Below are positions 1-18,909 of a DNA stretch of 64,000 nucleotides, in pieces. How positions within the stretch are numbered: position 1 is the stretch's first letter; every line of letters starts with the position of its first letter. Position numbers and translations under genes: made by a program. The stretch comes from Verrucomicrobiota bacterium (GTDB taxonomy: Bacteria; Verrucomicrobiota; Lentisphaeria; JABSQK01; JAJFLO01). The notes under the pieces were generated by a model that worked only from the letters and a program-made list of their open reading frames with translations, searched no databases and was not told the origin of the DNA. Location: contig JAJFLQ010000070.1 in NCBI GenBank assembly GCA_021772615.1, positions 29,145 to 93,144 of the forward strand, read 5' to 3'.

Positions 1-825
1 GATGAATTTACCTACCGAATTTCTGACGGCGCAGATACGTCTCTCGCGGCGACTGTCAATGTAATTGTCGATGATGTTGTTTTCATCCGCAACCACGAGT
101 CTCAGGTTGTAAACGACGACGGGCTAGATGTGGAGGTAACAGTATCATACGCTGTAGGCTTCAGCGGTGGGCCGATCACTCTGGAAGAAGTGCTGCCGCC
201 GATTGACGATGCAACCGCCTCATATACAGTTCCCTCTGGATCAGGTACGGACGGGTTCGATATCAGTGGTGAACAGCCGGAAACCGCTACGGAGTCTGGT
301 AACGTAATCAAATTCGTGTGGGGCGATTCTCAGGCGCTTCCGACCGCCAACCCGTTCACCTTTAATTATACGATCATCAACGCAGAGAACGCAGACGATG
401 TGATTGAGAAGCAGATCGTCGGCAGTATTAAGCACGGTATGAATACCGACGGCCCAAGCCTTGTTACTCGTTTTACCCCTGGAGCTTCAAGTTTCCATCC
501 TGCTGATTCCGATGAAAACGGTAGGATAAGCGCAATTGAATACTTGCTCTACGCCGGGCCGGCTGCTGATGCATTCCAAAAAGGCGCTAGCGGTCAATAT
601 TGCTTTGACGGCACGACGCTTCTTCCCGATGCCACCGGTTCCAGCTGTTCCGGACAACAGGTCACGCATCCCGCAGATACAAATGGCAATGCCAGAATCA
701 CTGCCATCGAATATCTCATTTTTGCAGGTCCCGCGGCTGACGTTTTCCAAAAAGGCGCTTCGGGTGCATACTGCTGGGACGGGATGACGCTCACGCCGGA
801 TACGGGCGGGGGCTGCGGAAACTGA
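1..825 (+). CDS. 3' end of a large secreted cadherin-like repeat protein, 5'-truncated by the window edge. It ends with two ~55-aa Ca-loop/Cys repeats.
   Basis: Frame 1 is open from nt 1 to the stop at 823-825; the ORF track shows only the part from the internal Met at 130. It begins DEFTYRISDGADTSLAATVNVIVDD, the end of a VNDAP-type repeat. C-terminal tandem repeat: HPADSDENGRISAIEYLLYAGPAADAFQKGASGQYCFDG / HPADTNGNARITAIEYLIFAGPAADVFQKGASGAYCWDG. Confidence 0.7.
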   Translation, partial: DEFTYRISDGADTSLAATVNVIVDDVVFIRNHESQVVNDDGLDVEVTVSYAVGFSGGPITLEEVLPPIDDATASYTVPSGSGTDGFDISGEQPETATESGNVIKFVWGDSQALPTANPFTFNYTIINAENADDVIEKQIVGSIKHGMNTDGPSLVTRFTPGASSFHPADSDENGRISAIEYLLYAGPAADAFQKGASGQYCFDGTTLLPDATGSSCSGQQVTHPADTNGNARITAIEYLIFAGPAADVFQKGASGAYCWDGMTLTPDTGGGCGN

Positions 826-916
826 ATTAGGCGCCGACGATACCCGACGTGCCAATCAGAGCCGCCAGATAATTCTGGGCAGCTCTTAAACCTAACTGAA
901 TCAGGAGACTGAAATC

Positions 917-3900
917 ATGACGATAGTTGCGAACAAAAAAGTTGTTTTTCTTTCCGTCCTTTCGACGATGTTGCTCCCCGGCCTACTTTTTGGTCAGATG
1001 TTCGACGGCACCCGAAGCGTAAGAGACGCATCGTCAGGGGATGTCGTAACCTGTTATACGTCAGGAAGTAATGTTGAGGTTACCATCGAAATTTCTGCTG
1101 CCACGGGTGATTCCAGTAATTTTGGATCATGGACGGTGGATGATGGCGTGCCGGACGGATGGTCGTTTGTAAGCGCGACCGATAACGGTCAATTTGATGC
1201 TGTCGGTGATCGTGTTAGCTGGACGGCTACCGGCAATCCGCCCAACGAACTCAGATACGTCCTTACTCCTGCGTCGACGGGTACCGCTGTTTTTTCCGTG
1301 AACGATATCGCAGGATTCAGCGGAGGCCTCATCGAGGGCACCATGGTCGACACAACCGTAGTTGAATGTGCCGATGCCGATTTGACGGCCAGCCTCGATA
1401 ACCCCGCCAACTCCGAACTGAACGTCGCCCAGAACACGCTGTCGCGCATGGTCAGTAACGGCAGCAACAGCGGTGATTTTACCGCGACGTTTAACGCGAT
1501 CGGTGCGCCTGGAAAGCCTGAGTTGGATCTGCTGTTTTTTCGTGTTGTAAAGGCGCAGGCCGGCGGACCACCATGGAATGTCAGCGACCCGATCGACGAG
1601 AGCAACAGTCCGACGTTCACTATGAGCAACGACGGCTGGCTACAGGTTGACGGCGAGCAGACAACAAGTACCAAGATAAATACCGCCAACAATTTTATGC
1701 ACACATTTAATATCGCGCTGGCTAATGCCGACTCCGACAGTCCGTCCGCGACAATCTCATGGGTCATCCCGACCGGGTTCATCGAATCAACGGTGGCCGA
1801 CGGAGAGGTGTACATCATGCAGATGCGGATCGTTGCATCAGGTGCCTTCGACACCAGCGGTCAATCCCTGGAACGTTTGTTGGGCGTGAATCAGCAAATG
1901 CCAGAAATCTTTCCAGTTGATCCTGCCGACGGCGGACTCGGGCCCGCGGTTGCATACTCGCAGGCAGGGACACACCAGGGCACGACCGGGCTCGCACGCC
2001 ATCCGGAAACCGGCTTGCTTTATGCCATTTTCCGGCCACAGGACCGGAATGCCACGCGTGTTCTGGGGCTCGTCAATCCCAATTCCGGTGAAATCGATAC
2101 CGTCGGCGATACCGGGCAGTCTATCGCGGATATCGCCTTTGGAGCCGATGGAACATTGTACGGCATCAGCGGCACGCGAGGACAAGGAGTATTCAGTGTT
2201 GCATCAGTATCAGCGGGTGACGTAAGTGAGCTTGACGGTGGCGATGTGCCGACCGTAGTTGAAACCGCTTTTTCAACCAATAGTCTTGCACTCAGTGGTA
2301 GCGAAACGGTCACGGTCCTGTTCGCTGGCGATGAATGGTTGATCGAGGACAATGACAGAGCCTTTGATTTGTCAATAGATTCCAGCACTCCCAACACTAT
2401 ACACGTATCGGAGGGCTCGAACACACTTTATTCAATCAGTCTCAATGACGGTAGCGTCACGGCATTGGTACGCATCGATGATTCCCCCGACGCCGCCGGA
2501 AAGGCTCTTGCATTCAATGACTCGGATGGCCTTCTTTATCATGCCTTCGGCTTCGATGCATCAGGATTTCAGGGGACGGGCATAGGCACGGGCTGCGGGT
2601 CGGGCGTTGGGTCTGGAAACAATCTCGACAATCGCAAATTCAAGAGTATCGATATCAGTGTGGATCCGCCAACGGTAACTGATATCAGTATTTCCGGTGA
2701 TGATTTCGATGAGCCGTTGGCTATGGCTTACGATACCGCCAACAACGATTTTATCCTTTCCGCAACCAACGAGAATTTGGAATTGACTTTTGTGTTTTCT
2801 GACACGCCGAACACGGCGACACCTTGTGCGACTTCAGTACAGCGTGCCGCGTGGTCCGGTGAGTCCGATGGTTTTGTCTCGGGAGCTAGTGTGATTACGG
2901 CGGGTGAAGTGACAGGGAACGCGGTGCGTTTGCAGGCCGATGTTCCAAATGTTTCCGGCGACCCACAGTTCATCGGAATACTTGAGTTTCCGGGTAAAGC
3001 GCCGGATGGCGGTCCCGCTTCTGGCGACAGCGACCTGAACGGAGGCAGTATTGGCGGCACGCTGATCGGTGGATCGATTTCTGTCGATGTCCGTCTTAGC
3101 TCGGTTAGGCCTGTGATCGTCCGCATATTGATCGGTAATGGCGAGGGCGACTTCTTCAAGGATTTCGAGGTTGACTCGACATCGTTTTCAACACTTTCGA
3201 TGAGCAACATACAGGCGAGTGACTTTACCGCGGAAGAGTCGGGTGCGGTGTTTAGCGGCGGAGTCTTTTCGTTTTCACTCGACATCCTTGCCGATGACGG
3301 ATTTGCGGCCGATAGCAATTTCTTCATTGATGTCGCCGATATCACGGTTGTGACAACTGGTGACGGCGGCGGAACACGGCAGGAAATTTTCAACGGTATC
3401 GCCGTTGGCGACGCGCTCGCCTTCGATGTGTTGGCAAGTGAGACCGCGCTCTTCAGGTTGTCTGCTTCTGGAGAGGCGACAATAATCACTGACGAACTTG
3501 ACAAGAAAGTCAAGGGGCTCGCGTTTTCGACGCAGTGGGAGGAAACCGTGTCATGGGCATTTAACGTGAATCCGTTTCAGCCTGTCGTTGCGAACGACGA
3601 CAACGATTCTGTCGACGCAGCCTTCTCCGTTGTCGAGGACTCAACAAACAATGTCCTGCCAATTCTGGCAAACGACCAAAATGGCGACGAAAACATCGAC
3701 CCGACGTCGATCGCGATCATTTCACAGCCGCGCTCGGACAGTACGCTGTCGATCGACGGCGGCGGCACGGTGCGATACTCGCCGGCACCGGATTTCTTTG
3801 GTACCGACACATTTACGTACACGGTAAACGATGCCGGTAGTCCGCCCGTTGCGTCAAACGAGGCCACGGTCATGATAACCGTCACGAACGTCAACGACGA

Positions 3901-6900
3901 TCCGATCGCATCCAACGACGATTTTGGGGATGGTGCTGACTCGGACGAGGATAGTGCTGTGACATTCAACGTGCTGACAAACGATTTTGATGTCGACGGC
4001 GATACGATTATTGTCATCGCTGTCGATGATAGCAGTGCCAGCGGCAGCGCAACATTCAATGCCAACGGTAACGTTACCTACAACCCGGATGACCTATTCG
4101 AATCGCTTGACGACGGCGAAAGCGACACCGACGTACTCACGTACACTATTAGCGACCAGGCCGGCGGCACGGCAATGGCGACAATCACAGTGACGATCAA
4201 TGGCGTCAATGACGCACCGGTAGCCGACGACGAAACCGCGTCGACAGACGAAGAAAGTGTCGTGACCACACCGGATGTCCTGGATGGCGACACAGACATC
4301 GAGGGCGATACGTTATCGATTGACAGCTTTGACAGTGTGAGCGCGGGCGGCGCCGCCGTGGCGCAAAACGGCAATGCATTCGATTACGATCCCAACGGTC
4401 AATTCGAGAGTCTCGCGCAGGGCGGTTCGACGCAGGACACCTTTAATTATCTGGTTAGCGACGGAGATCTCACCGACGAAGGACAGGTTACCGTCACCGT
4501 GTCGGGCGTCAATGATGCACCGACTGCGGTTGACCGCACGATTACTGTAACCACGGCCACCAGCACCGGCTCCCCCACAATTTTTGATCTTGAGGGTGAT
4601 GACGTTGATGACGGGCATGTCTTGACGATCGAGCAACTGTCGACACTAGTCCGTGTTGGCGGCAATGACGCATCGACAGCGACCACGCTGGACGCCACGC
4701 TTACCGGCCTCAGTGAGGTGCCGACACCGGTAGATACCGCTGCCACCGGGTCGGCGGCATTTAGCAACTGGAATCGCGCAAGCGATACGATTGATTTATC
4801 CGTGACGTTTTCAAATCTCTCCAGTCCGGTCGTTGGTGCGCACATACATGGCGCGGCAGGACCGACGGAAACCGCAAGTGTCGTGTTGAATCTGTTGGTG
4901 GACTCGCCGGCGCTTACCAATGCAGCTACCGATGTAACGTTGTCCACGAGTACCGGTGGCGCCATCACCGCTACGTGGGATTACAGCGGTTGCGACACGT
5001 CCGCATGCAATGGACTGGATGCTTCCGGAATCGAGGCGGCACTCGCGAGCGGTCAACTCTATGTCAACATCCATTCGCAGAATCATGCAGGCGGCGAGAT
5101 ACGCGGCCAGATTGGCCTGCCGTTGCGCGGCGGTGAGAGTTTTACCTTCAATGACGGCTCTGGCGTCGAGATGGAGCCGGGCGACCGTACTGCGGACGGC
5201 GCTGTGGATGGCGACGTCTACCAGTTCAGTTATCGCGTGGTCGATGAACATGATGCAGACTCGGGACAGCAACTGGTGACGATGAATGCAGTGGACAATC
5301 GCGTCCCGAACGCAGTTATCGACAATTTGACGTCGACGGATGAGGACACGGCTGTAGTGACCGAGAATGTACTGAGCAACGACTCGGACGACGACGGCGA
5401 CGACTTTACTATCGTTTCTCCGGTTGCGGATATCACCCTTGCCAGTGCGGGCGGCGGTATCGTTGTCCTCAACACCTCACCGGCGAATACGTTTACCTAT
5501 GATCCCAACGGACAATTCGAATTTCTCGCAGTCGGTGAGACGACGACGGACTCATTCACATATACCATCCGTGACGACAACAACGGTGAGGCGACAGGCA
5601 CGGTCGAGATTACGATCAACGGTGTGAATGACGATCCGATAGCCGCCGATGACGATTCCACCGACGGCGCCGAGAGCGATGAGGAAAACGAGGTGCTAAT
5701 CGATGTTCTTGCGAACGACAACGATCCGGATACATCGGACAATCCCAACTTAACCGTCACAGCGCTTGAAATTGCCGGACTTAAAGGCGATATCACGATC
5801 AGTAATAACGGTGACGACGTTACCTACAATCCCAATGGCCAGTTCGAATCGCTTGACGTCGGTGAGACGGACACCGACACCTTTGGCTACACGGTTTCCG
5901 ACGGCAATGGCGGCAGTGATACCGCGACCGTGACGGTCACGATAAATGGTGTGAACGATCTGCCGATAGCAGTAGATGATACCGACAGCACGGACGAAGA
6001 TACGCTGGTGTCGGTCAGCGTTCTTGGCAATGACGACGATCCCGATGACAGCGACCGGAATATCCTTGTGATTACGGCATTCGATTCAACCGGATCAACC
6101 GCCGGCATATCGATCAACGGAAGTGCGATTGATTACGATCCTTCAGGCCGTTTTGATGACCTGGATATCGGCGAGTCCGAAACGGTATCGTTCACTTATA
6201 CAATATCCGACGACAGCAACGCTGAGGCGACTGCTTCCGTCACGGTAACGATAAACGGTGTCAATGACGCCCCGACAGCTGTAGACGACGACGAATCGAC
6301 GACGGGAGATGCTGTGACCGACGAAGATACGGCGACCACGATTGATGTGCTGGAGAATGATCTTGATCCTGACGACCAGGGCATCCTCACGGCGTCGTTG
6401 CTCAGCGACGCGGGAATCAGCGGCGGTACGCTTACGGATAACGGAAACGGAACGTTCACGTTTGACCCGGCCGGTGACTTCGAGACGCTGGACGTGGACG
6501 AGTCGGACAGTGTCACCTTCACCTACACGGCTTCGGATGATAACGGCGCCACATCTACGGCGACCGTGACGATTACCATTGACGGCGTCAGCGACGCACC
6601 GGTTGCGTCAGCGTTCAATCTAAGTGTGAAGGCAAACAACTCCGACACCAATCCGAAAAACACAGTCGATGCCCCGTTATTCGCAACAGATATTGATGCC
6701 AGCGACACGGTTGACAGCGGCACCATTGTTTTCCGTGTCACGCGCCTGCCCGAGGATAAAGACGGCGGCAGCGCCGGTGATCTGCGTAAGCAGGGCGGCG
6801 GTTCCGTTGCGGAAGATGAGTCCATTACCGTTGTCGACCTGCCGTTGATCTTCGAGCCAGCCGCCGGGGCCCGTGGATTGATTACGTTCGATTATCTGGC

Positions 6901-9217
6901 TGAAGACGACAGTGGATTGCAATCCGCCGAGGTAACAATCAATATCACTGTGGGCGCGCCGCCGTGGTTTCCCTTTGTCACGCTGCCTGCAAGCGATACA
7001 ACGTTGGACAGCGAATTCTTTAATGTTCAGGTATACCAGGGAATTTCGGCGACACTGGATGCAAGCCTGGTGGTGTTGCCTGACGACGCCACTCCGCCGA
7101 GCGGCAGTGGAAGCACCGCGAGTGGCGATGTGTTTCTGATCGTTCGGGATACCGGCGATGACGGCGTATTTATCGACTTCGGCCTCGACGTCGACGGAAT
7201 CGATTACGGAGACCTCGATAATACGCATGGTGGAAACGGTACGGCGATTCATGTGCATAATGGCGGACCGTCGGAGCGTGGCCCGATCATCATTGACCTT
7301 CAGTGGTTCGGCGACAATCACGGGACGGTTTCGACCGGTACGGACAGCTTTTCGATTGATGTGCGGAATGCGGAGCTGACGCAGGTGCAGGGCAGTCATG
7401 ACACCGGGCTGACTCCCGCAGAAATTGTGGATCTGCTGAACACGAACAATACCTATGTCACCGTGCACGACGACGACTTCCCCACCGGGGCGTTACGGGC
7501 GAATCTGTGGGTGGATACTTTCTCAGGTCAATCTGTCGTGCTCGACGGTCCGACGGTCGTCGTTCCCAGCGATACGGATCCGCCATCCGGAAGCGGAAGT
7601 ACAGCGACGGGGGAGACCTCGCTATTGGTATATGACAATGGTGGAGGCGATATACGGTTCGACTTTGATCTGGCTGTCGACGGTATCGCATTCAATACAT
7701 TGGACATCACCGGCAACGGCGGTGTAGGCCATGGTGGAAACGGAACCGCGGTGCACATCCATCAAGGCGGTCCGACGGACCGCGGCGGTATCATTATCGA
7801 TGTCGAGTATTTCGCGACGGAAACGGTTTTCGGGTCGGTGACGGAAACCGATACCGGATTTGAATTCAGTGTAAAGGGCGCACCCGTCGATAGCGTACAG
7901 GGCGCACACAATACCGGGTTGACGCCGATTCGAATCCTGGATCTCGTTCGTCAGGGCCACAGTTATATCACCGTGCATGATTTGGATTTTCCGACGGGTG
8001 CGATTCGTGCGAATTTCGCAGCCGCTGTGAATTCGACCGGCGCGATCGAGGCGCCTGTTTTCGAAACGATCACGGATGAAACCGAAATCGCCGCCGAAAC
8101 GTACTTCCTCGCAGGTTTCACCGGCTTTCTGCCGAATGATTATCTCTTGTTTGCGCGTCCGGTGGATCTGGCATTGGGAATTAATAATCCTGCGGCATTT
8201 GGTGACTTCCTCAATGAGGTAGTGGACATCGAAGTAAACAGCTACGGCCGGGCCCGTGTCGGGGAATTTCCCGGGTCTGACATCGTTGATCAGGGTAACG
8301 GCGACGGTAGTTACGATTTATTTTTCAACGTCGAGAACGCACGTGGATTCGAAGTCATGGCGTCTGGAACGATAACGAATTTCGAGACAAGTCTGCGCAA
8401 GGTTTTTTCACCAGACGACAACGGCGATATCCCTCAAACACAGGAACAGGACGAACCCGAAACGATCGTGGTAACCGGAACGGATATGTTTGATGTGACG
8501 ATTTCTGCCTTCAATCCGATCGATGAACTGGTCCTGGGATTGCATCCTGTTGACTTCCCAGATTCCCCAATCGATCAGATGCAAAGCGCTAATCCTCCGG
8601 CGGTGACCCCGGGTAACCCCGGTGGGCTGCGGCCGCGTCGCGGCGATGTTATACAGGCGCCGCAGGGAACTGTGCCGGTAAACTTCAGTTGGAACCCAGT
8701 GGCCGGTGCGACGACGTACCGCGTGATCCTGTTTAACCTCGGAACCGGTAAGTTTATCATGAACATGACCGAATTCAGCAGCCTTGTCGCGCCGCCTGTA
8801 ACGCGGACGCTGGCGCCCGGCAAGTACAGCTGGTCGGTGCAGGCTGTCAATGCCGGAGGCGGTTCAACGTTGGCCAGCGCATGGACGAAACAACAGCAGT
8901 TTACAGTTATCGAAACATTATCGGTCCCAGTCATTGTCAACGTTGCCATTACATCGGCGCAACAACTTCAGCTTACGTTCGCGTCAGGGGGGCCGGGCAG
9001 TACTGGACAGCCCCCCGTGACTGTGGTAAACGCATTCTGGATCGATGCATCTAACATTGGATTAGGCTGGCAGCCATTAGATGGCTCTGATGTCGGCGGC
9101 GGCGTTTGGGACTTCGGCAATTCCGCAGATTTCGCAGCAGGAGATCTGGTAGAGATTCAGGGGCAGATTACGAATACCACTGGGATTGGTGAATTCTTTA
9201 AGTTCGATCTGGAGTAA
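917..9217 (+). CDS. Giant secreted adhesin-like protein (2766 aa): signal peptide, beta-propeller-like LY-repeat region, ~10 cadherin-like/VCBS-type repeats, three CHRD domains, Fn3-like domain, C-terminal GW/W.WD/DLE module.
   Basis: Single long ORF. N-terminal MTIVANKKVVFLSVLSTMLLPGLLFG signal. Repeated ...FTYTVSDGNGGSDTATVTVTINGVNDAP... units. CHRD signatures (LTGLSEVPTPVDTAATGSAAF ... GAHIHGAAGPTE ... YVNIHSQNHAGGEIRGQI). SWNPVAGATTYRV Fn3-like motif. Confidence 0.85.
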   Translation: MTIVANKKVVFLSVLSTMLLPGLLFGQMFDGTRSVRDASSGDVVTCYTSGSNVEVTIEISAATGDSSNFGSWTVDDGVPDGWSFVSATDNGQFDAVGDRVSWTATGNPPNELRYVLTPASTGTAVFSVNDIAGFSGGLIEGTMVDTTVVECADADLTASLDNPANSELNVAQNTLSRMVSNGSNSGDFTATFNAIGAPGKPELDLLFFRVVKAQAGGPPWNVSDPIDESNSPTFTMSNDGWLQVDGEQTTSTKINTANNFMHTFNIALANADSDSPSATISWVIPTGFIESTVADGEVYIMQMRIVASGAFDTSGQSLERLLGVNQQMPEIFPVDPADGGLGPAVAYSQAGTHQGTTGLARHPETGLLYAIFRPQDRNATRVLGLVNPNSGEIDTVGDTGQSIADIAFGADGTLYGISGTRGQGVFSVASVSAGDVSELDGGDVPTVVETAFSTNSLALSGSETVTVLFAGDEWLIEDNDRAFDLSIDSSTPNTIHVSEGSNTLYSISLNDGSVTALVRIDDSPDAAGKALAFNDSDGLLYHAFGFDASGFQGTGIGTGCGSGVGSGNNLDNRKFKSIDISVDPPTVTDISISGDDFDEPLAMAYDTANNDFILSATNENLELTFVFSDTPNTATPCATSVQRAAWSGESDGFVSGASVITAGEVTGNAVRLQADVPNVSGDPQFIGILEFPGKAPDGGPASGDSDLNGGSIGGTLIGGSISVDVRLSSVRPVIVRILIGNGEGDFFKDFEVDSTSFSTLSMSNIQASDFTAEESGAVFSGGVFSFSLDILADDGFAADSNFFIDVADITVVTTGDGGGTRQEIFNGIAVGDALAFDVLASETALFRLSASGEATIITDELDKKVKGLAFSTQWEETVSWAFNVNPFQPVVANDDNDSVDAAFSVVEDSTNNVLPILANDQNGDENIDPTSIAIISQPRSDSTLSIDGGGTVRYSPAPDFFGTDTFTYTVNDAGSPPVASNEATVMITVTNVNDDPIASNDDFGDGADSDEDSAVTFNVLTNDFDVDGDTIIVIAVDDSSASGSATFNANGNVTYNPDDLFESLDDGESDTDVLTYTISDQAGGTAMATITVTINGVNDAPVADDETASTDEESVVTTPDVLDGDTDIEGDTLSIDSFDSVSAGGAAVAQNGNAFDYDPNGQFESLAQGGSTQDTFNYLVSDGDLTDEGQVTVTVSGVNDAPTAVDRTITVTTATSTGSPTIFDLEGDDVDDGHVLTIEQLSTLVRVGGNDASTATTLDATLTGLSEVPTPVDTAATGSAAFSNWNRASDTIDLSVTFSNLSSPVVGAHIHGAAGPTETASVVLNLLVDSPALTNAATDVTLSTSTGGAITATWDYSGCDTSACNGLDASGIEAALASGQLYVNIHSQNHAGGEIRGQIGLPLRGGESFTFNDGSGVEMEPGDRTADGAVDGDVYQFSYRVVDEHDADSGQQLVTMNAVDNRVPNAVIDNLTSTDEDTAVVTENVLSNDSDDDGDDFTIVSPVADITLASAGGGIVVLNTSPANTFTYDPNGQFEFLAVGETTTDSFTYTIRDDNNGEATGTVEITINGVNDDPIAADDDSTDGAESDEENEVLIDVLANDNDPDTSDNPNLTVTALEIAGLKGDITISNNGDDVTYNPNGQFESLDVGETDTDTFGYTVSDGNGGSDTATVTVTINGVNDLPIAVDDTDSTDEDTLVSVSVLGNDDDPDDSDRNILVITAFDSTGSTAGISINGSAIDYDPSGRFDDLDIGESETVSFTYTISDDSNAEATASVTVTINGVNDAPTAVDDDESTTGDAVTDEDTATTIDVLENDLDPDDQGILTASLLSDAGISGGTLTDNGNGTFTFDPAGDFETLDVDESDSVTFTYTASDDNGATSTATVTITIDGVSDAPVASAFNLSVKANNSDTNPKNTVDAPLFATDIDASDTVDSGTIVFRVTRLPEDKDGGSAGDLRKQGGGSVAEDESITVVDLPLIFEPAAGARGLITFDYLAEDDSGLQSAEVTINITVGAPPWFPFVTLPASDTTLDSEFFNVQVYQGISATLDASLVVLPDDATPPSGSGSTASGDVFLIVRDTGDDGVFIDFGLDVDGIDYGDLDNTHGGNGTAIHVHNGGPSERGPIIIDLQWFGDNHGTVSTGTDSFSIDVRNAELTQVQGSHDTGLTPAEIVDLLNTNNTYVTVHDDDFPTGALRANLWVDTFSGQSVVLDGPTVVVPSDTDPPSGSGSTATGETSLLVYDNGGGDIRFDFDLAVDGIAFNTLDITGNGGVGHGGNGTAVHIHQGGPTDRGGIIIDVEYFATETVFGSVTETDTGFEFSVKGAPVDSVQGAHNTGLTPIRILDLVRQGHSYITVHDLDFPTGAIRANFAAAVNSTGAIEAPVFETITDETEIAAETYFLAGFTGFLPNDYLLFARPVDLALGINNPAAFGDFLNEVVDIEVNSYGRARVGEFPGSDIVDQGNGDGSYDLFFNVENARGFEVMASGTITNFETSLRKVFSPDDNGDIPQTQEQDEPETIVVTGTDMFDVTISAFNPIDELVLGLHPVDFPDSPIDQMQSANPPAVTPGNPGGLRPRRGDVIQAPQGTVPVNFSWNPVAGATTYRVILFNLGTGKFIMNMTEFSSLVAPPVTRTLAPGKYSWSVQAVNAGGGSTLASAWTKQQQFTVIETLSVPVIVNVAITSAQQLQLTFASGGPGSTGQPPVTVVNAFWIDASNIGLGWQPLDGSDVGGGVWDFGNSADFAAGDLVEIQGQITNTTGIGEFFKFDLE
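3557..4607 (+). repeat. Coding tandem repeats: cadherin-like/VCBS-type ~100-aa units (first block).
   Basis: Repeated VNDDP/VNDAP-terminated units with DxDGD and FTYTV motifs are visible in the translation. Confidence 0.6.
4690..5120 (+). other. CHRD domain 1 within the giant protein.
   Basis: LTGLSEVPTPVDTAATGSAAFSNW ... VGAHIHGAAGPTETASVV ... GQLYVNIHSQNHAGGEIRGQIG matches the CHRD consensus (EVPP ... AHIHxG ... YVNVHT ... GEIRGQI). Confidence 0.7.
5237..6722 (+). repeat. Coding tandem repeats: cadherin-like/VCBS-type ~100-aa units (second block, about 5 units).
   Basis: Units ending EITINGVNDDP, VTVTINGVNDLP, VTVTINGVNDAP, VTITIDGVSDAP. Confidence 0.6.
7070..8010 (+). other. CHRD domains 2 and 3 in tandem.
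   Basis: Two copies of the pattern ATPPSGSGSTASG / TDPPSGSGSTATG ... GNGTAIHVHNGGPSERGPIIID / GNGTAVHIHQGGPTDRGGIIID ... YVTVHDDDFPTGALRANL / YITVHDLDFPTGAIRANF. Confidence 0.6.
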
Positions 9218-9333
9218 CAGATCGGTGTTCATCTTGTCTGCGGTCCGATCATTCGGTTCGCTGACATCGCAACAGTCAGCATTGGACGTTTACATTGCGC
9301 AGTTACATCAAAATCATATTGAGGAGACAGTTG

Positions 9334-10215
9334 ATGAAATCTCGTAAGGTTAGTTTGGGTATATTTATTGCAACCATGCCGTTGTTGCTGGGGGCGGCTG
9401 AGATCTCGACGGAGGGAATGACGTTCCACATCGGCGCGAATTACCGGAATTTCGATGATGTCGAATTTCAGGGTTTCGCATTCGATAACTTCAATAATTC
9501 CGCGGTTGTCGGCGGACCATTTGGTGTTCAGGGTTTCGTTAATGTGGGGTCGAACCCGCCGCCCCAGATCCAGGCCGACTATGTCATGTTCGGTGGCTCC
9601 GAGGATGACACGGATGGCTGGGGACCGGGCTTCGGCATTGAGTTGCCGGTTGGTAACGAAGAGGAAGACATTGCCCTGAGTTTGGTCGGAAACTTCGGAT
9701 TTTTCAGTCTACAGGCTGGCGAAATCAGCTCGGACGGCCTGCTGACCGGATCTGCTCCTCACGATGTGCTAGGCGATGGAACGGTTGTTCCCATCAACCC
9801 GAATACGACACCGGACCCAACGCAGAATCTCACGCCAGGCGCGCCTACAGGGGTGCAAGTGGAAAATGACTTTGACATGGAGTTGTATGTACTGGATATC
9901 GGCCTTAAGGGCACTATCGGCGTAATGGATAATTTCGCTTTCGCTGTCGCAGCCGGGCCTACGCTGAGCATCGGCGACCTCGACACCTTTCAACGCGAGG
10001 TCGGTAGTGCCGGCGGACGGCGTACGAGTGATTCGGAAACAGACGTTGTTTTGGGACTGTATGTTAATCTTGAAGCCTCTTACCAGTTCAATGAATCGCT
10101 CGGAGTGTCTCTTGGGTATCGTTATGATTATGCTAGTGACGATGTCAGCACGGATCAGGCGGAGTTGGATTTGGATGGACATGGAGGTCAGATCCGCGTC
10201 AATATTGCTTTCTAG
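9334..10215 (+). CDS. Outer-membrane beta-barrel protein (OmpA-like/OMP_b-brl family), ~294 aa.
   Basis: GAGGAG RBS 7 nt upstream of the ATG at 9334. Signal peptide MKSRKVSLGIFIATMPLLLGAAE. Alternating hydrophobic beta-strand pattern. C-terminal ...GGQIRVNIAF ends in Phe. Upstream in-frame ATG at 9295 is less likely. Confidence 0.7.
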   Translation: MKSRKVSLGIFIATMPLLLGAAEISTEGMTFHIGANYRNFDDVEFQGFAFDNFNNSAVVGGPFGVQGFVNVGSNPPPQIQADYVMFGGSEDDTDGWGPGFGIELPVGNEEEDIALSLVGNFGFFSLQAGEISSDGLLTGSAPHDVLGDGTVVPINPNTTPDPTQNLTPGAPTGVQVENDFDMELYVLDIGLKGTIGVMDNFAFAVAAGPTLSIGDLDTFQREVGSAGGRRTSDSETDVVLGLYVNLEASYQFNESLGVSLGYRYDYASDDVSTDQAELDLDGHGGQIRVNIAF

Positions 10216-10263: not shown

Positions 10264-13200
10264 ATGAACCGGTTTCCTCGGGAACCGGTTTTTTTATTTC
10301 GCAACATCAAGCCGTTGACCGCAGCGGTTCTGCTCTTGCTGGCAGCGTCGGGTCTTCGCGGCTATGGTGCGGTATCTACCCTGGTGTCGCGGGGTAGCGA
10401 CGGGCTGCCCGGAGTTGGGCATAGCGGACGCACCGATACCACGGCCGAAGGTATTGTTTACCGACGTGCGCACGTGGATGATAAGGGGGCTGTGTTCTTC
10501 CTGAGCCGTGCGCCGTTGGCGCCGGAGGACACAAACGGCGAAGTGAATGACCTGTATCGTTTTCGCGCCGCAACGGCTACCGTGATAGACTCACCTGTCG
10601 AAAGCGCATCTTTTCCCTCCGGGTGCACCGAGTTGTCGTCGGATATCTTCGATTTCGCAATATTCGGTGCATCGGACAATTGGTATGTCGCGCGGCAGAC
10701 ATCGCCGCTGCCTCCACCGCCTCCTCCTGAGTATCTGTTCTCCCTGACGATCGATGGGAGTAAGCGGGCGATTTTTTGCAGATCCGGCGTGAAACATATC
10801 GATTTTGCGAGTAGCGGAAATCTGGGCGTCTTTGATACGCAAATAGACGATTCGAGTATCCGCCATATTTGGCTGCACGAGGCGAATACGGATGGCGTTA
10901 CATCCATTACTGCAGATGCTGATGGAAACAGCTTCTGTCCTGTTATTTCTGATGACGGCAGTCATGTCTATTTCCTGTCCCAATCATCCAATCTGGCCGG
11001 CGCGCCCGGATTGCTGAAGTACGATGTGGCAGCGGATGTGACGACGTCTGTCGTATCGTTTCAAATCACGGAGCTGGACGCGGCTGTTGATGCGCCGCAT
11101 GTCAGTGAAAGCAGCGATGTCGTATGTTTTTCCTCGAAGAATACAGTCATCGTGAACAATGACACAAACGGAAAACGCGATGTGTTCGTATGCGATGCCG
11201 GCAATGTCGAGCGGATCACAGCGGACAATGGCGCACAGTCAAACGGCGATGACGATAGCCCTCGGCTGAGTCGTGACGGCCGTTATATCGTATTCAGATC
11301 GAATGCCGGTAACCTGATTCGTGACGGCGGTAACGGCCGCTATCAGATATACGTTCATGACCGATTCACACGGGTCATACAGTGTGTAAGCGTCACGAAC
11401 GATATCGCACCGGCGCTTGCAGATCGCGATTGTTACGCCCCCGAGATATCCCCGAACGGACGATATGTCACCTTTGTAACCGACGCCGTCAATCTTGCGG
11501 CACCGTACATGGCGGACGGACAGGTCAACGGTCATCAACAGGTTTATCTTGTTGACACCCGTCCGGCAGTCGCGGAGCATCACACGATCAGCGGTAGAAC
11601 GGGTAACGCGATCGAGTTCTACCTTCGCGGACAACATCCGGACGGACATGAATTGAGCTATGCGCTTCAATCGAGTCCATCTGATGGCGCTGTCAGGGAC
11701 AAAGACGGTACAGCGGTGGAAATCGGGATCCTTTTCGCGACCGATTCGTTCCCATGGTCGTACGAACCGAACAGTTCGTCAGTCTTGTCAGACTCGTTCG
11801 AGTTTCTGCTGCTATCGACAGATTCATTGCCTTCCCGTCCTGCTACCGTCAGCATGCGTTTGATCCCTACCGGCACGGGTTATATTCGACGCGTAAGTGT
11901 CAGTGAATCGGGTGGGGAGGGAACACAACATGCCTTCGATCGTACGGCACCAATTCCGTTGGGAAATGTGGATGTGAGTGACAGCGGGAATCGCATCGTC
12001 TTTGATTCTCGTTCAAGTGAATTGAATAGCGAGAATGTCAACACGAATTCTGATGTGTATGTGCATGACAGAATTGCAGGTCGTCTTTTTCAAATCAGTG
12101 CGATTCACGACCCGGCGAGCGGCATGGCGGCAATTTCAGGGGACGGAAGGTCTGTCGTCTATTTTACCGATGCTGGTCGACAATTGATCTGGCAGGCTGT
12201 GGCGTCGCGATCTGGTGTGGTGCTTGATACGTTCACTTTTCGCCCCGAGTCGGCGCCTGCCATATCTGATGATGGGACGCGCGTGGCGTTCCGTAACGGT
12301 GCCGCTCTGTATCTGTTCGACTTCAGCATCATGAATGCACCCGAGCTACTCATTGCGAATGGCGATGAACCCCAAATATCGGGCGATGGCAATGTAATAG
12401 CATACTCAAGCCTTGACGATGATATGATTCATTTGTTCTACGTAACTTCGCGAAGCTCGCCGTCGTTCTCAATTGCCGGCTCGGAGCCGCAACTCTCCGT
12501 AAGCGGAAGGTATCTGGCTTATCTTAATGAGAGCGGGCGGCCCGAAAGACGAAATCTTGTATCTGGAGAGGTCGTTGGTCCGGATGTTGGGGCGTCGACA
12601 AACACGTCGATTTCCGGCACTGGTCGTTTTGTTTACTACACTAAAGGAGGGCAGGGGTTTCGTTACGATGCTAATCTGGACATCGTTGAAGCCGTCAGCG
12701 CGACTGCGACCGAAGTTGGCGACGACACGACATTTGCCGGTGTCCTGTCCAGTTCCGGATCTGTCGCTGCGTTTGCGTCTGATGCCGGAAACTTGGTGAA
12801 CGGTGACGTGAATAATAAGCGTGATATATTTACAACAATTTTCCCATTGCCACAGAATTCATTGCCAGCCGCGGATGCACCGGATCTTATAGTGATGGAA
12901 GATTCAGAGTCGATATCAATTCCATTGAGCTATACCGATGCCGAGGGTGATGATGTCGAAACAATGGTTACAGAAGCTCCGTCACACGCGGGGATGTTTG
13001 TGCTCAGTCCGCCTGTATTCGGGTCCGCGTTCTGGACGGTTGCGTACAAGCCGGCGGCAGATTTTTTCGGAACGGATTCGTTTTCATATCGGCTTCGTGA
13101 TGGTTCCGGATTCTGGACAAAGTCGGCAAGCGTCGCGATTACGGTGACCAACGTCAACGACCAACCGTCGATCGACGCGATTGACGATATGACCGTCGTG

Positions 13201-15245: not shown

Positions 15246-15515
15246 TTACTTACCGGATATCGCGCCGTGCGTCCGAAACGAGCGGGTTGGAGAAAACTCT
15301 CCCAGCCGATGACCAACCATGTTCTCGGTGACAAACACCTGTATGAATGTTCGACCGTTGTGGACCTGGAAGGTGTGCCCAACGAAATCCGGCATGATCA
15401 TTGAACGCCGCGACCATGTCTTGATTGGTCGCTTTTCTCCACGTGCGTCGAGCCGACGAACTTTCTTCATCACATGCTCGTCGTAGAACGGTCCCTTTTT
15501 GACAGATCTGCCCAT
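15246..15515 (-). CDS. rpsS: 30S ribosomal protein S19.
   Basis: [19 protein letters not shown] ... [27 protein letters not shown] ... [17 protein letters not shown] matches the S19 hallmarks. Start is the internal Met of ORF 15246..15644, 1 nt after the rplB stop. Confidence 0.93.
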
Positions 15516-15516
15516 G

Positions 15517-16347
15517 CTATTTCTTTCTCCGTTCGATAATGAATTTATTGGACGTCTTGCGTTTATTCCGGGTGCGATAGCCTTTTGCAAGCTGCCCCCA
15601 GGGAGATACAGGATGACTGCCGCCACTTGACCGGCCCTCACCACCGCCCATTGGGTGGTCGACTGGATTCATCGCCACACCACGCGTCGTCGGACGGACA
15701 CCGAGATACCGCTTCTTGCCGGCCTTGCCAAGCGATATTTTCATGTGCTCGCCGTTACCGACCTGCCCTATTGTCGCCATGCATTTCACATGAATCTGGC
15801 GAATCTCCCCGCTTGGCAGACGCACCTGAGCGTATTTTCCTTCCTTGGCGCGAATGATGGCCTGCTGGCCGGCGGCCCGAACCAAAGCGCCGCCCTTTCC
15901 GGGAGTCAGTTCGATATTGTGGATGGCTATGCCCGGCGGAATCTTGCCTAGCGGCAAGGCGTTGCCAACCTTGAATGGTGCGTCGGCCTCGCTGCTTACG
16001 ATCGTCATTCCTACGGTTAGTCCGTTGGGGGCAAGAATATACAGTTTCTCACCATCAAGATAATGGAGCAACGCGATATTGGCACTGCGATTGGGATCGT
16101 ATTCGATTGCTGCGACTTTTGCCGGAATATCGAATTTCTTGCGCTTAAAGTCGATCTGGCGATACGAGCGCTTTACGCCGCCACCGCGATGACGCACCGT
16201 CATTTTTCCCTGGTTATTGCGGCCGCCGGTAGATTTCTTTCCTCTTACCAGACGCTTTTCCGGTGTCGCACGAGTAAGCTCGGCAAAGCCGGATACCGTC
16301 ATGTGCCGCCGGGACGGTGTGGTTGGTTTATATTGCTTTAACGCCAT
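15517..16347 (-). CDS. rplB: 50S ribosomal protein L2.
   Basis: [18 protein letters not shown] ... conserved L2 sequence, 276 aa. Confidence 0.97.
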
Positions 16348-16416
16348 GATATCCCCTGTGTCGGTTCAAAAGTCTAGATGCGTTCATGCCGTGTCGGCCT
16401 GGACGCACAAGGATTG

Positions 16417-16698
16417 CTAGAATAAGTCGATCGCCTCTTCGCCGTCACGCAATGTGACAATTGCCTTCTTCCAATCGGCGCGCTTGCCGACACCATAACG
16501 ATTTCGTTTCGTCTTGCCCTTGCAGTTAATGATGTTGACAGACTTGACGTGTCGGTCGAACAACTTATGAACCGCGAACTTGACATCGTATTTGTTGGCT
16601 CGACGATGGATGATAAATGTGTACTGATTGTGTTCGATCAATTCGTTGCTTTTCTCGGTCATCGCGACCGTATTTATAATCTGATAAGGATCATTCAT
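16417..16698 (-). CDS. rplW: 50S ribosomal protein L23.
   Basis: 93 aa at the correct operon position between L4 and L2. KLFDRHVKSVNIINCKGKTKR is L23-like. Confidence 0.9.
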   Translation of the reverse strand: MNDPYQIINTVAMTEKSNELIEHNQYTFIIHRRANKYDVKFAVHKLFDRHVKSVNIINCKGKTKRNRYGVGKRADWKKAIVTLRDGEEAIDLF

Positions 16699-16819
16699 TT
16701 TATGTTGTCACTCCGCTCAATGATTCGCCAACCGGCGTGTCTTTCCGTGTCTCGCATTGTCCCTGGAATAATAATGATTGTCAGGTCTGCGATCGCGTGA
16801 TCTTGCGTTCGAGAACAGC

Positions 16820-17800
16820 CTATGTCAGCCTGCTGCCAAATATATCGAGTGCGTCCTTTGTGAATATGATGCGGTCGTACAACAGAATTTGGTATACATT
16901 TGCACAATTGGCCTGGATAAGCTCCACATAAGGTAAATTTGAGGCGGCCAGGATGACATTAACATTTTCGTAGTCCTTCACGACAACAAGGCAGTGTTCG
17001 CCGGCGCCGACCGTGTCAAGGTACTGTACCATCTTCTTCGTCTTTGGTTCACTCAACAGGATCGTATCGGCAATGATGACCGCTTCTTCATCAATCTTCG
17101 AAGTGAATGCGCGGCGCAACGCCAGTTGCCGCACCTTCTTGTTGGTCTTCTTACTGTAATCCCGTGGCGACGGACCGAATGCTACACCGCCGCCGCGCCA
17201 GATTGGACTTTTTCGTGATCCTGCGCGGGCACGACCGGTGCCTTTTTGCCGCCATGGTTTGGCGCCAGAGCCGCGAACACGAGCACGGTTTTTGGTGGCC
17301 GCCGTTCCTTCGCGCTGGCCAGCCAAGTATGCTACGACAGTGTCATGGACAGCCTGTTTGCCGCGGCATCTTTCGATCCAGGTGACGTCAATGTCATAGT
17401 CACCCACTTTCTTACCATTGGTGTCGATGATAGGAAGTGTTACCGGGACGTTGTCATCTGCGTCTTGGTCTATCGCTGGAAGAGAACCTGTCTCTTCGTC
17501 CGTCACGACAGTGTCGGCAACGTGTTCGACGGCAGTTATGTCGGCCGCCATCGCGGCGTCAGCTACGTCCACGTCATCCGTCTCTGCGTCAACTTCCGCC
17601 ACTGCCAGGTCGGGCGTGTCCGCATTCTCAGGCTCAGTCCCAGTAGCGGCGATGGCTTCCTCAGACTTGGCATTGTCGGACGCCTTCGCTTCTTTGGACG
17701 CAACGTCGGCGTCGACAGGCATTTCGTGTGCTGATTCAGTTACCGCGTCGTCTGCAACAGCGGGTTCCTCAGATTCATTCTTAAATTCTTTATCCGCCAC
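16820..17800 (-). CDS. rplD: 50S ribosomal protein L4 with a ~115-aa acidic low-complexity N-terminal extension.
   Basis: L4 core (PIIDTNGKKVGDYDIDVTWIE ... ARVRGSGAKPWRQKGTGRARAGSRKSPIWRGGGVAFGP ...) preceded by a D/E/A-rich segment. Only 77 nt separate this ORF start from rplC. Confidence 0.88.
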   Translation of the reverse strand: MADKEFKNESEEPAVADDAVTESAHEMPVDADVASKEAKASDNAKSEEAIAATGTEPENADTPDLAVAEVDAETDDVDVADAAMAADITAVEHVADTVVTDEETGSLPAIDQDADDNVPVTLPIIDTNGKKVGDYDIDVTWIERCRGKQAVHDTVVAYLAGQREGTAATKNRARVRGSGAKPWRQKGTGRARAGSRKSPIWRGGGVAFGPSPRDYSKKTNKKVRQLALRRAFTSKIDEEAVIIADTILLSEPKTKKMVQYLDTVGAGEHCLVVVKDYENVNVILAASNLPYVELIQANCANVYQILLYDRIIFTKDALDIFGSRLT

Positions 17801-17877
17801 GGGATACAGGTCCTTCGATTATAGGTGATCGCGTTATGAACGGTTTACGTCGTTTGCGCCTGTGTGTGTCTACAGTG

Positions 17878-18510
17878 TTATTTTTTTCTGGCTTGTCTAA
17901 TAATGATCCAACCGCCGTTCGGTCCAGGGACCGCCCCTTTAATAAGCAACGCGTTGTCTTCTTTCCGAACTTGGACTACCTGCAAGTTTTGTACGGTTTT
18001 ACGACGGTTCCCCATTTGCCCCGGCATCTTGCGTCCCCGATAAACCTTCCCGGGCGACTCACACATACCGATCGAACCACCGCGGCGTTCCCAGTCTCCA
18101 CCGTGGCTCGCGCGTCCACCGCGAAAACCGTAGCGCTTAATGACGCCCTGAAACCCGCGACCCTTAGTGGTTCCGACGACATCGATAAAGTCGCCTTGCT
18201 GAAATATATCCGCGGCCAAAGTGGATCCAACCGCTTCAGATGGATCGTCTGTGAGGCGGATCTCCCGGACCCAGGCGGGGCCGGCCTTGGTATAGGCAGC
18301 CGGCTTGAACTGTTCGCGCTGTGGCTTGTTGATGCGTTCCAATCGTCGTTCGCCGTAACCCAACTGCACGGCCGAATATCCGTCGACTTCCTGCGTTCGG
18401 TTTGCAATGACAGTGCAGGGACCAGCTTCCACGACGGTGACAGGGATCATTCGCCCGTTGTCATCGTATATGTGCGTCATTCCGACTTTTTTTCCCAGTA
18501 ATCCCTTCAT
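17878..18510 (-). CDS. rplC: 50S ribosomal protein L3.
   Basis: MKGLLGKKVGMTHIYDDNGRMIPVTVVEAGPC ... 210 aa. Confidence 0.96.
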   Translation of the reverse strand: MKGLLGKKVGMTHIYDDNGRMIPVTVVEAGPCTVIANRTQEVDGYSAVQLGYGERRLERINKPQREQFKPAAYTKAGPAWVREIRLTDDPSEAVGSTLAADIFQQGDFIDVVGTTKGRGFQGVIKRYGFRGGRASHGGDWERRGGSIGMCESPGKVYRGRKMPGQMGNRRKTVQNLQVVQVRKEDNALLIKGAVPGPNGGWIIIRQARKK

Positions 18511-18600
18511 AGTCTACCGCTCACAATATCTCTTTAGGTTAATTTGAACTGCCGTCAACCGGGCCGCGCCTGGCGGACGGCATCAACGACGCGTCGTCAG

Positions 18601-18909
18601 TCAGATTTTTATGCTAATGTCAACGCCGGCAGGTAGGTTGAGTTTCTTCAAGTCATCTACGGTTTTTGCTGTTGGATCGATAATATCCAACAAGCGTTTG
18701 TGCGTTCGAATTTCAAATTGCTCCATCGACTTTTTGTCAACAAACGGCGAACGATTCACCGTGTAACGCTCGATACGGGTCGGGAGCGGAATGGGCCCGG
18801 CAACACGCGCACCTGTGCGACGCGCTGTATTTACGATTTCACCTGCGGACTTGTCAAGGACCCGATGGTCATATGCCTGAAGCCGTATGCGTATAGTCTG
18901 TTTGCTCAT
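18601..18909 (-). CDS. rpsJ: 30S ribosomal protein S10.
   Basis: [21 protein letters not shown] ... 102 aa. Confidence 0.96.

Follow-up and report, generated by a model that had tools for sequence, protein, structure and literature searches.

What kind of protein places three CHRD (chordin-like) domains among cadherin-like repeats, and how far out of the ordinary is such an arrangement? The question is posed by a giant protein of 2766 amino acids encoded in a 64,000-nucleotide stretch of Verrucomicrobiota DNA (contig JAJFLQ010000070.1 of assembly GCA_021772615.1, forward-strand positions 29,145 to 93,144; hereafter the window) by an intact open reading frame (ORF) that runs on the forward strand from an ATG at 917 to 9217. 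A first-pass annotation made from the letters alone had described the giant as a cadherin-like protein with three CHRD domains in an unusual combination. Our analysis bears out the CHRD and cadherin-like assignments and indicates, on sequence grounds, that the giant is secreted, very acidic and of an ordinary kind among giant bacterial surface proteins, with a mix of domains that is rare. The accompanying remark that CHRD domains are poorly understood in bacteria holds, as their function there is still unknown (PMC5335551, PMC13382577).

Domain architecture of the giant

The giant is strongly acidic (isoelectric point, pI, about 4), with 431 aspartate and glutamate residues against 81 lysine and arginine residues, and starts with a predicted Sec signal peptide read from the sequence as MTIVANKKVVFLSVLSTMLLPGLLFG with Q as the next residue. 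Coordinates of all features are collected in Table 1. Matches to the Pfam families Cadherin_4, Cadherin_5 and Big_9 (PF17803, PF17892, PF17963) cover 7-8 stretches of the protein (E 3e-89 to 8e-63; 226, 209 and 294 bits respectively) and the NCBIfam tandem-95 repeat NF012211 reaches 302 bits (cut-off 90), with VCBS at 105 bits, which supports the description of a cadherin-like (tandem-95/VCBS) protein, its domain order and positions included. Repeats end in VNDAP, VNDDP, VNDLP or VSDAP at residues 992, 1097, 1198, 1570, 1679, 1782 and 1891, and D-rich motifs are visible within them. Seven repeats are canonical, one is split and one is degenerate, a tally close to the ten or so counted at first. 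As the eukaryote-type cadherin repeat (PF00028) has no match in the giant at E<=0.01, the term cadherin-like is valid in its bacterial sense only.

All three CHRD domains were recovered where they had first been seen when the copies were scanned separately with the Pfam model PF07452 (gathering score 24.1 bits), with CHRD1 matching at residues 1259-1399 (nucleotides 4691-5113) with 83.8 bits, CHRD2 at about 2047-2195 (about 7055-7501) with 49.6 bits and CHRD3 at about 2207-2365 (about 7535-8011) with 39.7 bits. CHRD2 and CHRD3 are 52% identical to one another and 25-33% identical to CHRD1 (CHRD2 25%), and the two subtypes appear from their sequences to have been recruited separately. The bacterial signature HxH ... 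YVxVH ... GEIRG is complete in CHRD1; CHRD2 and CHRD3 retain HxH, Y..H and R, with GA[LI]RAN in place of GEIRG. The nearest proteins of the CHRD2/3 type, P0124 and P0097, have an uninformative gene context. In a PDB profile search the CHRD profile matched the chordin structures 9qvv, 9igm and 9rd6 (E 5e-12), and CHRD1, a homologue of the chordin CHRDs of known structure, is modelled as a superoxide dismutase (SOD)-like Greek-key beta-barrel of eight strands.

CHRD1 is flanked by two half-repeats. A hidden Markov model (HMM) of 108 positions was built from the seven good repeats of the giant, and the two halves when joined align to positions 1-106 of it with 16.6 bits. Because the joined halves fit the repeat model end to end, CHRD1 appears, on this alignment, to be nested inside a split tandem-95 repeat.

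The N-terminus had been read as beta-propeller-like, with LY repeats. Neither Pfam nor NCBIfam gave a match in residues 1-884 and a single-sequence AlphaFold model of residues 336-884 was unusable, with a predicted local distance difference test (pLDDT) score of 34.7; a propeller in residues 336-874 is possible given the G[LI]A[FY]...G.LY motifs and the all-beta secondary structure. This block of about 545 residues adjoins a domain that we call N2, which has no Pfam, NCBIfam or PDB match and recurs in a relative, P0139, described below. The N2 core of P0139 runs straight into a strand reading EEIIQWAFNV without any such block. The best match to this strand in the giant lies at residues 871-897 (score 48 versus 25 at the contiguous site), and the giant's N2 spliced by removal of the block aligns better to P0139 than the contiguous sequence does (441 versus 423), which together argue that the block is an insertion into N2.

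The Fn3-like domain that had been proposed towards the C-terminus could not be corroborated by HMM scans, with no fn3 (PF00041) match at E<=1 in residues 2571-2665 and a HYDIN/VesB Ig-like match at E 0.054 only. This segment is the sole basic part of the giant (pI 11). The preceding domain C1 has no Pfam or PDB match and PDB profile searches with the C-terminal module of the giant, and with the barrel protein encoded downstream, were likewise without a match. Among sorting signals, Por_Secre_tail, PEP-CTERM and RTX gave no match when residues 2371-2766 were scanned with Pfam at E<=1. Marks of RTX adhesins secreted by a type I secretion system (T1SS) were also absent, with no HemolysinCabind match and with adhes_GNV_Cterm at 28 bits where 180 are required, and no sorting domain common to the giant and a neighbouring 1523-amino-acid protein was found.

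Rarity of the architecture and a relative with the same neighbours

An exhaustive HMMER search over 1.84 billion representatives (E<=1e-3) yielded 3466 CHRD proteins. Three or more CHRD copies, and up to 12, are present in 145 of the 177 CHRD proteins collected, and CHRD arrays were seen fused with type IX secretion system (T9SS) tails, cohesin, SusE, SdrD_B, ASH/HYDIN Ig domains and a GSDH propeller plus CBM96. Hemolysin-type calcium-binding proteins of Trichodesmium also carry several CHRDs (PMC5776111). Neither a count of three CHRDs nor their presence in a large secreted mosaic is out of the ordinary. By local HMM search the fusion of CHRD with tandem-95 repeats is absent from the best 149 of the 3466 CHRD proteins, a negative limited by a ranking of the best 150 or so that favours multi-copy arrays, and CHRD is absent from the 95 tandem-95 proteins matched by the giant. 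Within the proteins compared, the architecture first judged unusual appears to be so in its CHRD/tandem-95 fusion, with no close relative showing the same, and is not so in its number of CHRD copies.

Bacterial multi-CHRD proteins resemble the giant in having several CHRDs within large secreted mosaics and in the HxH/YVNVH/GEIRG signature; they carry 4-12 mostly contiguous CHRDs together with T9SS tails, RTX repeats, SusE, SdrD_B, ASH or GSDH, whereas the giant has three CHRDs of two subtypes with tandem-95 repeats between them and one copy apparently nested. With the giant tandem-95/VCBS adhesins (NF012211, TIGR01965; Vibrio tandem-95 proteins and RTX adhesins of LapA/BapA type) it shares acidic Ig-like repeats of about 100 amino acids with VNDAP ends, at 30-42% identity. 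It differs from these adhesins in having no RTX repeats, von Willebrand factor A (vWA) domain, retention module or T1SS signal, and an N-terminal Sec signal instead. The four-CHRD region of chordin (9RD6, 9QVV, 9IGM) offers a homologous domain with an SOD-like Greek-key barrel.

The sole true relative of the giant found was P0139, an unnamed protein of 1526 amino acids (ENA ERZ25072979, contig_2 of 8.78 Mb, locus L081 10001-14581). It shares with the giant the signal peptide, N1 and N2, the last repeat, one CHRD and the C-terminal module, with identities of 47% over N2, 38% over the last repeat plus CHRD and 36% over the CHRD plus the whole C-terminal module. Its CHRD is of the subtype SGSGS...GGN.TAVHIH...RGN and the W.P.A.AT.Y.V segment is also present. 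P0139 differs in having one CHRD rather than three, in lacking the insertion of about 545 residues and in carrying other Ig-like repeats in place of tandem-95 repeats, of which its polypeptide has none.

The neighbours of P0139 are also those of the giant. Downstream of P0139 is encoded a 308-amino-acid protein that is 36-39% identical (E 1e-51) to an outer-membrane barrel protein in the window (9334-10215), the gene for which starts 117 nt after that of the giant. Upstream lie two Big_9 proteins (L081 5729-7360 and 8099-9904), both with C-termini, made of a DUF11-like part and two HPADxDxNxRI..E repeats, that are 32-36% identical to the gene fragment at 1..825 of the window. A three-gene neighbourhood of Big_9 protein, giant and barrel is common to the two genomes, with a GC content of 45% in the genome of P0139 versus 54% in the window. 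The barrel of the window has a signal peptide and ends in RVNIAF, with a terminal phenylalanine, and was judged by eye to have about 10-12 strands; its gene is preceded by a ribosome-binding site, GAGGAG, at 9321-9326. NCBI holds its exact 293-amino-acid product and neither PDB nor NCBIfam gave a match to it. The conserved barrel gene, the two CHRD subtypes, the split repeat around CHRD1 and the insertion into N2 all go beyond the first-pass annotation.

No further relatives were found on GTDB genome contigs scanned with the region from CHRD2 to the C-terminus, nor any further members on JGI metagenome contigs scanned with C-terminal and N2 alignments. In 80 genomes fetched via ribosomal protein L2, the giant, the barrel and the next large protein were not encoded near L2. 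Word-indexed searching returned nothing for a query made by joining the N- and C-terminal regions, and only 27 short single-CHRD proteins for the CHRD profile; both are weak negatives, with even the query's own entry (P0001) missed. As far as can be judged from their sequences the giant and P0139 would form a small family not described before.

Possible roles of the giant and of its CHRD domains

At roughly even odds (a probability of about 0.5) we read the giant as a Sec-exported, extremely acidic, rod-like surface adhesin or fibril of an uncultured bacterium of the Planctomycetes-Verrucomicrobia-Chlamydiae (PVC)/Lentisphaerota-like kind, stiffened by calcium and held by the barrel. By analogy with other cadherin-like/BIg adhesins its D-rich tandem-95 repeats would bind Ca2+ and stiffen into a stalk, and the small barrel encoded downstream would be the attachment point for the conserved C-terminal module. 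The apparent size of the barrel, too small to let a polypeptide of 290 kDa through, would favour an anchoring role over that of a pore. Contact with ligands would fall to the variable N-terminal head and to the CHRDs, the latter as binding or metal modules that would more probably hold a metal or a small ligand than bind sulfated glycans in the manner of chordin.

A number of points weigh against this reading. Apart from the map of domains and the shared gene neighbours it is inferred throughout, adhesion, Ca2+ binding, barrel anchoring and metal binding included. No outer-membrane export route for the giant was identified, the linkage to the barrel rests on two genomes with a gap between the two genes of about 1 kb in L081, and the nesting of CHRD1 rests on the 16.6-bit alignment, with both flanks of the domain below a pLDDT of 50 in an AlphaFold model of residues 1195-1470. 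With regard to the CHRDs as metal modules, CHRD2 and CHRD3 lack the conserved Glu and Gly of GEIRG, three of four copper-ligand positions are kept in bacterial CHRDs and an hhalign comparison of the CHRD profile with human SOD1 was not significant.

The CHRDs themselves suggest another role, in which the giant, whether released or displayed on the surface, handles metals or counters oxidative stress, with SOD-like sites for copper or another metal as its core, scavenging trace metals or detoxifying extracellular superoxide, and with the repeats as spacers. We consider this unlikely, even though the fold of the CHRDs is SOD-like and the HxH, His and Arg residues are conserved family-wide at copper-site positions. 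The sequence evidence for metal sites bears on the CHRDs as metal modules in the adhesin reading too. Column conservation was counted over 71 near-full-length bacterial CHRDs (among proteins P0097-P0272), in which the two histidines of HxH are kept in 85% and 82%, the Y and H of YVNVH in 85% and 92% and the G-E-x-R-G columns in 96/82/99/92%; the alignments show chordin CHRDs without HxH and the third His. In the model of CHRD1, analysed with DSSP, strand 4 closes with HxH, strand 7 with the third His, and strand 8 begins with the Arg. In SOD1 these positions are, as we take it, occupied by the copper ligands H46, H48 and H120 and by R143, and the HxH, His and Arg of bacterial CHRDs would in this model map to the SOD copper site. 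Within the giant 16 of 24 histidines lie inside the CHRDs. Positions 17-52 of the Sod_Cu HMM align to the GL...G.HIH segment in one CHRD of P0128 (E 6e-4, below threshold). The response of the multi-CHRD calcium-binding proteins of Trichodesmium to iron and dust contact (PMC5776111) also fits a metal-related role.

Other findings speak against a metal or superoxide function. The Sod_Cu model (PF00080) has no match in the giant, the profile alignment to SOD1 just mentioned falls short of significance, the CHRDs account for just 17% of the giant and, set beside the Cu,Zn and Cu-only SODs (SOD1; SOD5, 4n3t; Deinococcus DR_0644), they are without the fourth copper ligand and the zinc and electrostatic loops. 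Chordin CHRDs, moreover, hold no metal (PMC13382577).

A further histidine stands 15 residues after HxH in about 31% of the 71 bacterial CHRDs, a spacing identical to that of H48-H63 in SOD1. Direct homology of the CHRD histidine motif to the SOD copper site was set aside on the non-significant hhalign result, and the correspondence is kept as a topological one only. No relevant paper turned up when the literature was searched for bacterial CHRDs in connection with copper or with adhesins.

Chordin CHRDs bind sulfated glycosaminoglycans (PMC13382577). Binding of this kind was likewise rejected as the default function, since all three CHRDs have a pI of about 4 (14-25 acidic versus 2-6 basic residues each) and are without basic patches; that binding mode is unlikely for the giant.

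The conserved gene order gives rise to a third view, which we regard as distinctly unlikely, of a structural envelope or S-layer-like component, or of a scaffold docking the neighbouring Big_9 proteins via their C-terminal EF-hand/dockerin-like repeats, with no adhesive role of its own. The order of Big_9 protein with HPADxDxNxRI..E repeats, giant and barrel in two genomes and the chromosomal location beside core genes would suit such a component, but the order is known from those two genomes only, HMMs for cohesin and dockerin do not match the terminal repeats and the giant yielded no cohesin-like domain. Bolder still would be the proposal that bacterial CHRDs are an offshoot of the SOD fold binding copper or another metal, with the HxH/His/Arg half of the active site retained, and that the giant and P0139 represent a new PVC-type surface system displaying such sites at a distance from the cell for trace-metal capture or defence against extracellular reactive oxygen species, with a Sec-exported fibre, a dedicated small outer-membrane barrel and dockable Big_9 proteins; this we hold to be improbable.

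That a chimeric assembly or decaying pseudogene has produced a biologically meaningless mix of domains is very improbable, in spite of the protein being a singleton cluster from a metagenome-like contig (its identical, unnamed NCBI entry is a singleton, as are all the proteins looked up, at 90% identity), since the ORF runs without interruption for 8.3 kb behind a ribosome-binding site, its GC content matches that of the flanks, the independent P0139 is collinear across the N-terminus, CHRD and C-terminus with the same neighbours, and the gene contains no DNA-level tandem repeats or recent duplication that could cause misassembly. The absence of DNA-level repeats together with tandem-95 repeats that are 35-55% identical to one another at the protein level argues for an old architecture rather than an assembly artefact.

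Should the reading of the giant as a barrel-held adhesin or fibril be true, it would represent a new architecture among the giant proteins at the surface of PVC bacteria, a poorly studied group, with CHRDs of two subtypes, one of them nested in a cadherin-like repeat, and the small family with its conserved barrel partner would hint at a mode of anchoring not yet described. The wider point concerns the CHRD family, in that bacterial CHRDs keep His-x-His, His and Arg at positions of the SOD copper site that are lost in chordin. The function of bacterial CHRDs has been open since 2003, and the finding as it stands is a catalogue entry and not a mechanism.

Feature map and neighbouring genes

Table 1 Features of the giant gene and its immediate surroundings in the window
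Feature	Residues	Position (nt)	Strand	Basis or remark
3' end of upstream gene running off the window		1..825	+	frame 1 open from base 1
Ribosome-binding site AGGAGA		904..909	+	7 nt before ATG; read from sequence
Giant gene, 2766 amino acids		917..9217	+	pI about 4; identical protein P0001 in NCBI
Putative Sec-type signal peptide (KK, hydrophobic core, LFG before Q)	1-26	917..994	+	by eye; N-terminus of P0139 equivalent
N1, DUF11-like beta-sandwich	27-150	995..1366	+	sub-threshold DUF11, E 0.012, 16.4 bits against cut-off 24.6
N2, family-specific domain	151-335	1367..1921	+	47% identical to P0139
All-beta block of about 545 residues, absent from P0139	about 336-874	1922..3538	+	recurring G[LI]A[FY]...G.LY motifs
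Strand EETVSWAFNV closing N2 after the insertion		3539..3568	+	comparison with P0139
Tandem-95/cadherin-like repeats 1-3	885-1201	3569..4519	+	Pfam, NCBIfam, sequence
Split tandem-95 repeat, N-terminal half	1202-1247	4520..4657	+	repeat-HMM positions 1-44
CHRD1, canonical subtype EVPTP...AHIH...YVNIH...GEIRGQI	1248-1401	4658..5119	+	Pfam 83.8 bits
Split tandem-95 repeat, C-terminal half	1402-1465	5120..5311	+	repeat-HMM positions 52-106
Tandem-95/cadherin-like repeats 5-8	1466-1894	5312..6598	+	Pfam, NCBIfam, sequence
Degenerate repeat	1895-2015	6599..6961	+	weak repeat-HMM match; Big_9 E 0.002; in 38%-identity block with P0139
CHRD2, subtype PPSGSGST...GGNGTAIHVH...YVTVHD...GALRAN	2040-2199	7034..7513	+	Pfam 49.6 bits
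CHRD3, CHRD2 subtype	2200-2368	7514..8020	+	Pfam 39.7 bits; orthologous to the single CHRD of P0139
C1, family-specific domain	2369-2570	8021..8626	+	conserved with P0139
Fn3-like/Ig-like segment	2571-2665	8627..8911	+	motif W.P.A.AT.Y.V, conserved in P0139
C3, C-terminal domain	2666-2766	8912..9214	+	weakly conserved with P0139
Partner gene, 293-amino-acid outer-membrane beta-barrel		9334..10215	+	OMP_b-brl 30.1 bits against cut-off 28.7 (Pfam)
11-bp hairpin and T-run after the barrel gene		10266..10300	+	overlaps start (ATG 10264) of next gene

What the window contains of the upstream gene codes for the last part of a tandem-95 repeat, for a DUF11-like segment and, at its end, for two repeats of about 45 amino acids with the consensus HPAD[ST]DxNxRI[ST]AIEYL..AGPAAD.FQKGASG.YC.DG. 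The terminal repeats have no match in Pfam, the cohesin and dockerin HMMs included, and by eye they resemble the Ca2+ loops of EF-hands or dockerins. Beyond the barrel gene, the gene starting at 10264 encodes a protein of about 1515 amino acids that combines propeller repeats of the PD40/TolB kind with tandem-95 repeats and has a signal peptide of its own. The strong hairpin that overlaps this start could be a terminator, an attenuator or a coincidence.

Core genes beside the locus include genes of the S10 operon, fusA, rpoC, rpoB, tuf and rpsA. The S10 operon (15246-18909, reverse strand) encodes S10, L3, L4, L23, L2 and S19 and ends after rpsS, with L22, S3 and the rest not following, and converges on the large surface-protein genes. 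Its ribosomal protein L2 is 72-77% identical to those of Lentisphaeria and Verrucomicrobia metagenome-assembled genomes. If a GTG start is used the L4 ORF (16820-17800, reverse strand) carries a highly acidic N-terminal extension of about 130 amino acids, and the Pfam family Ribosomal_L4 covers residues 148-320 only; the extension may reflect an over-extended ORF or be specific to the lineage.

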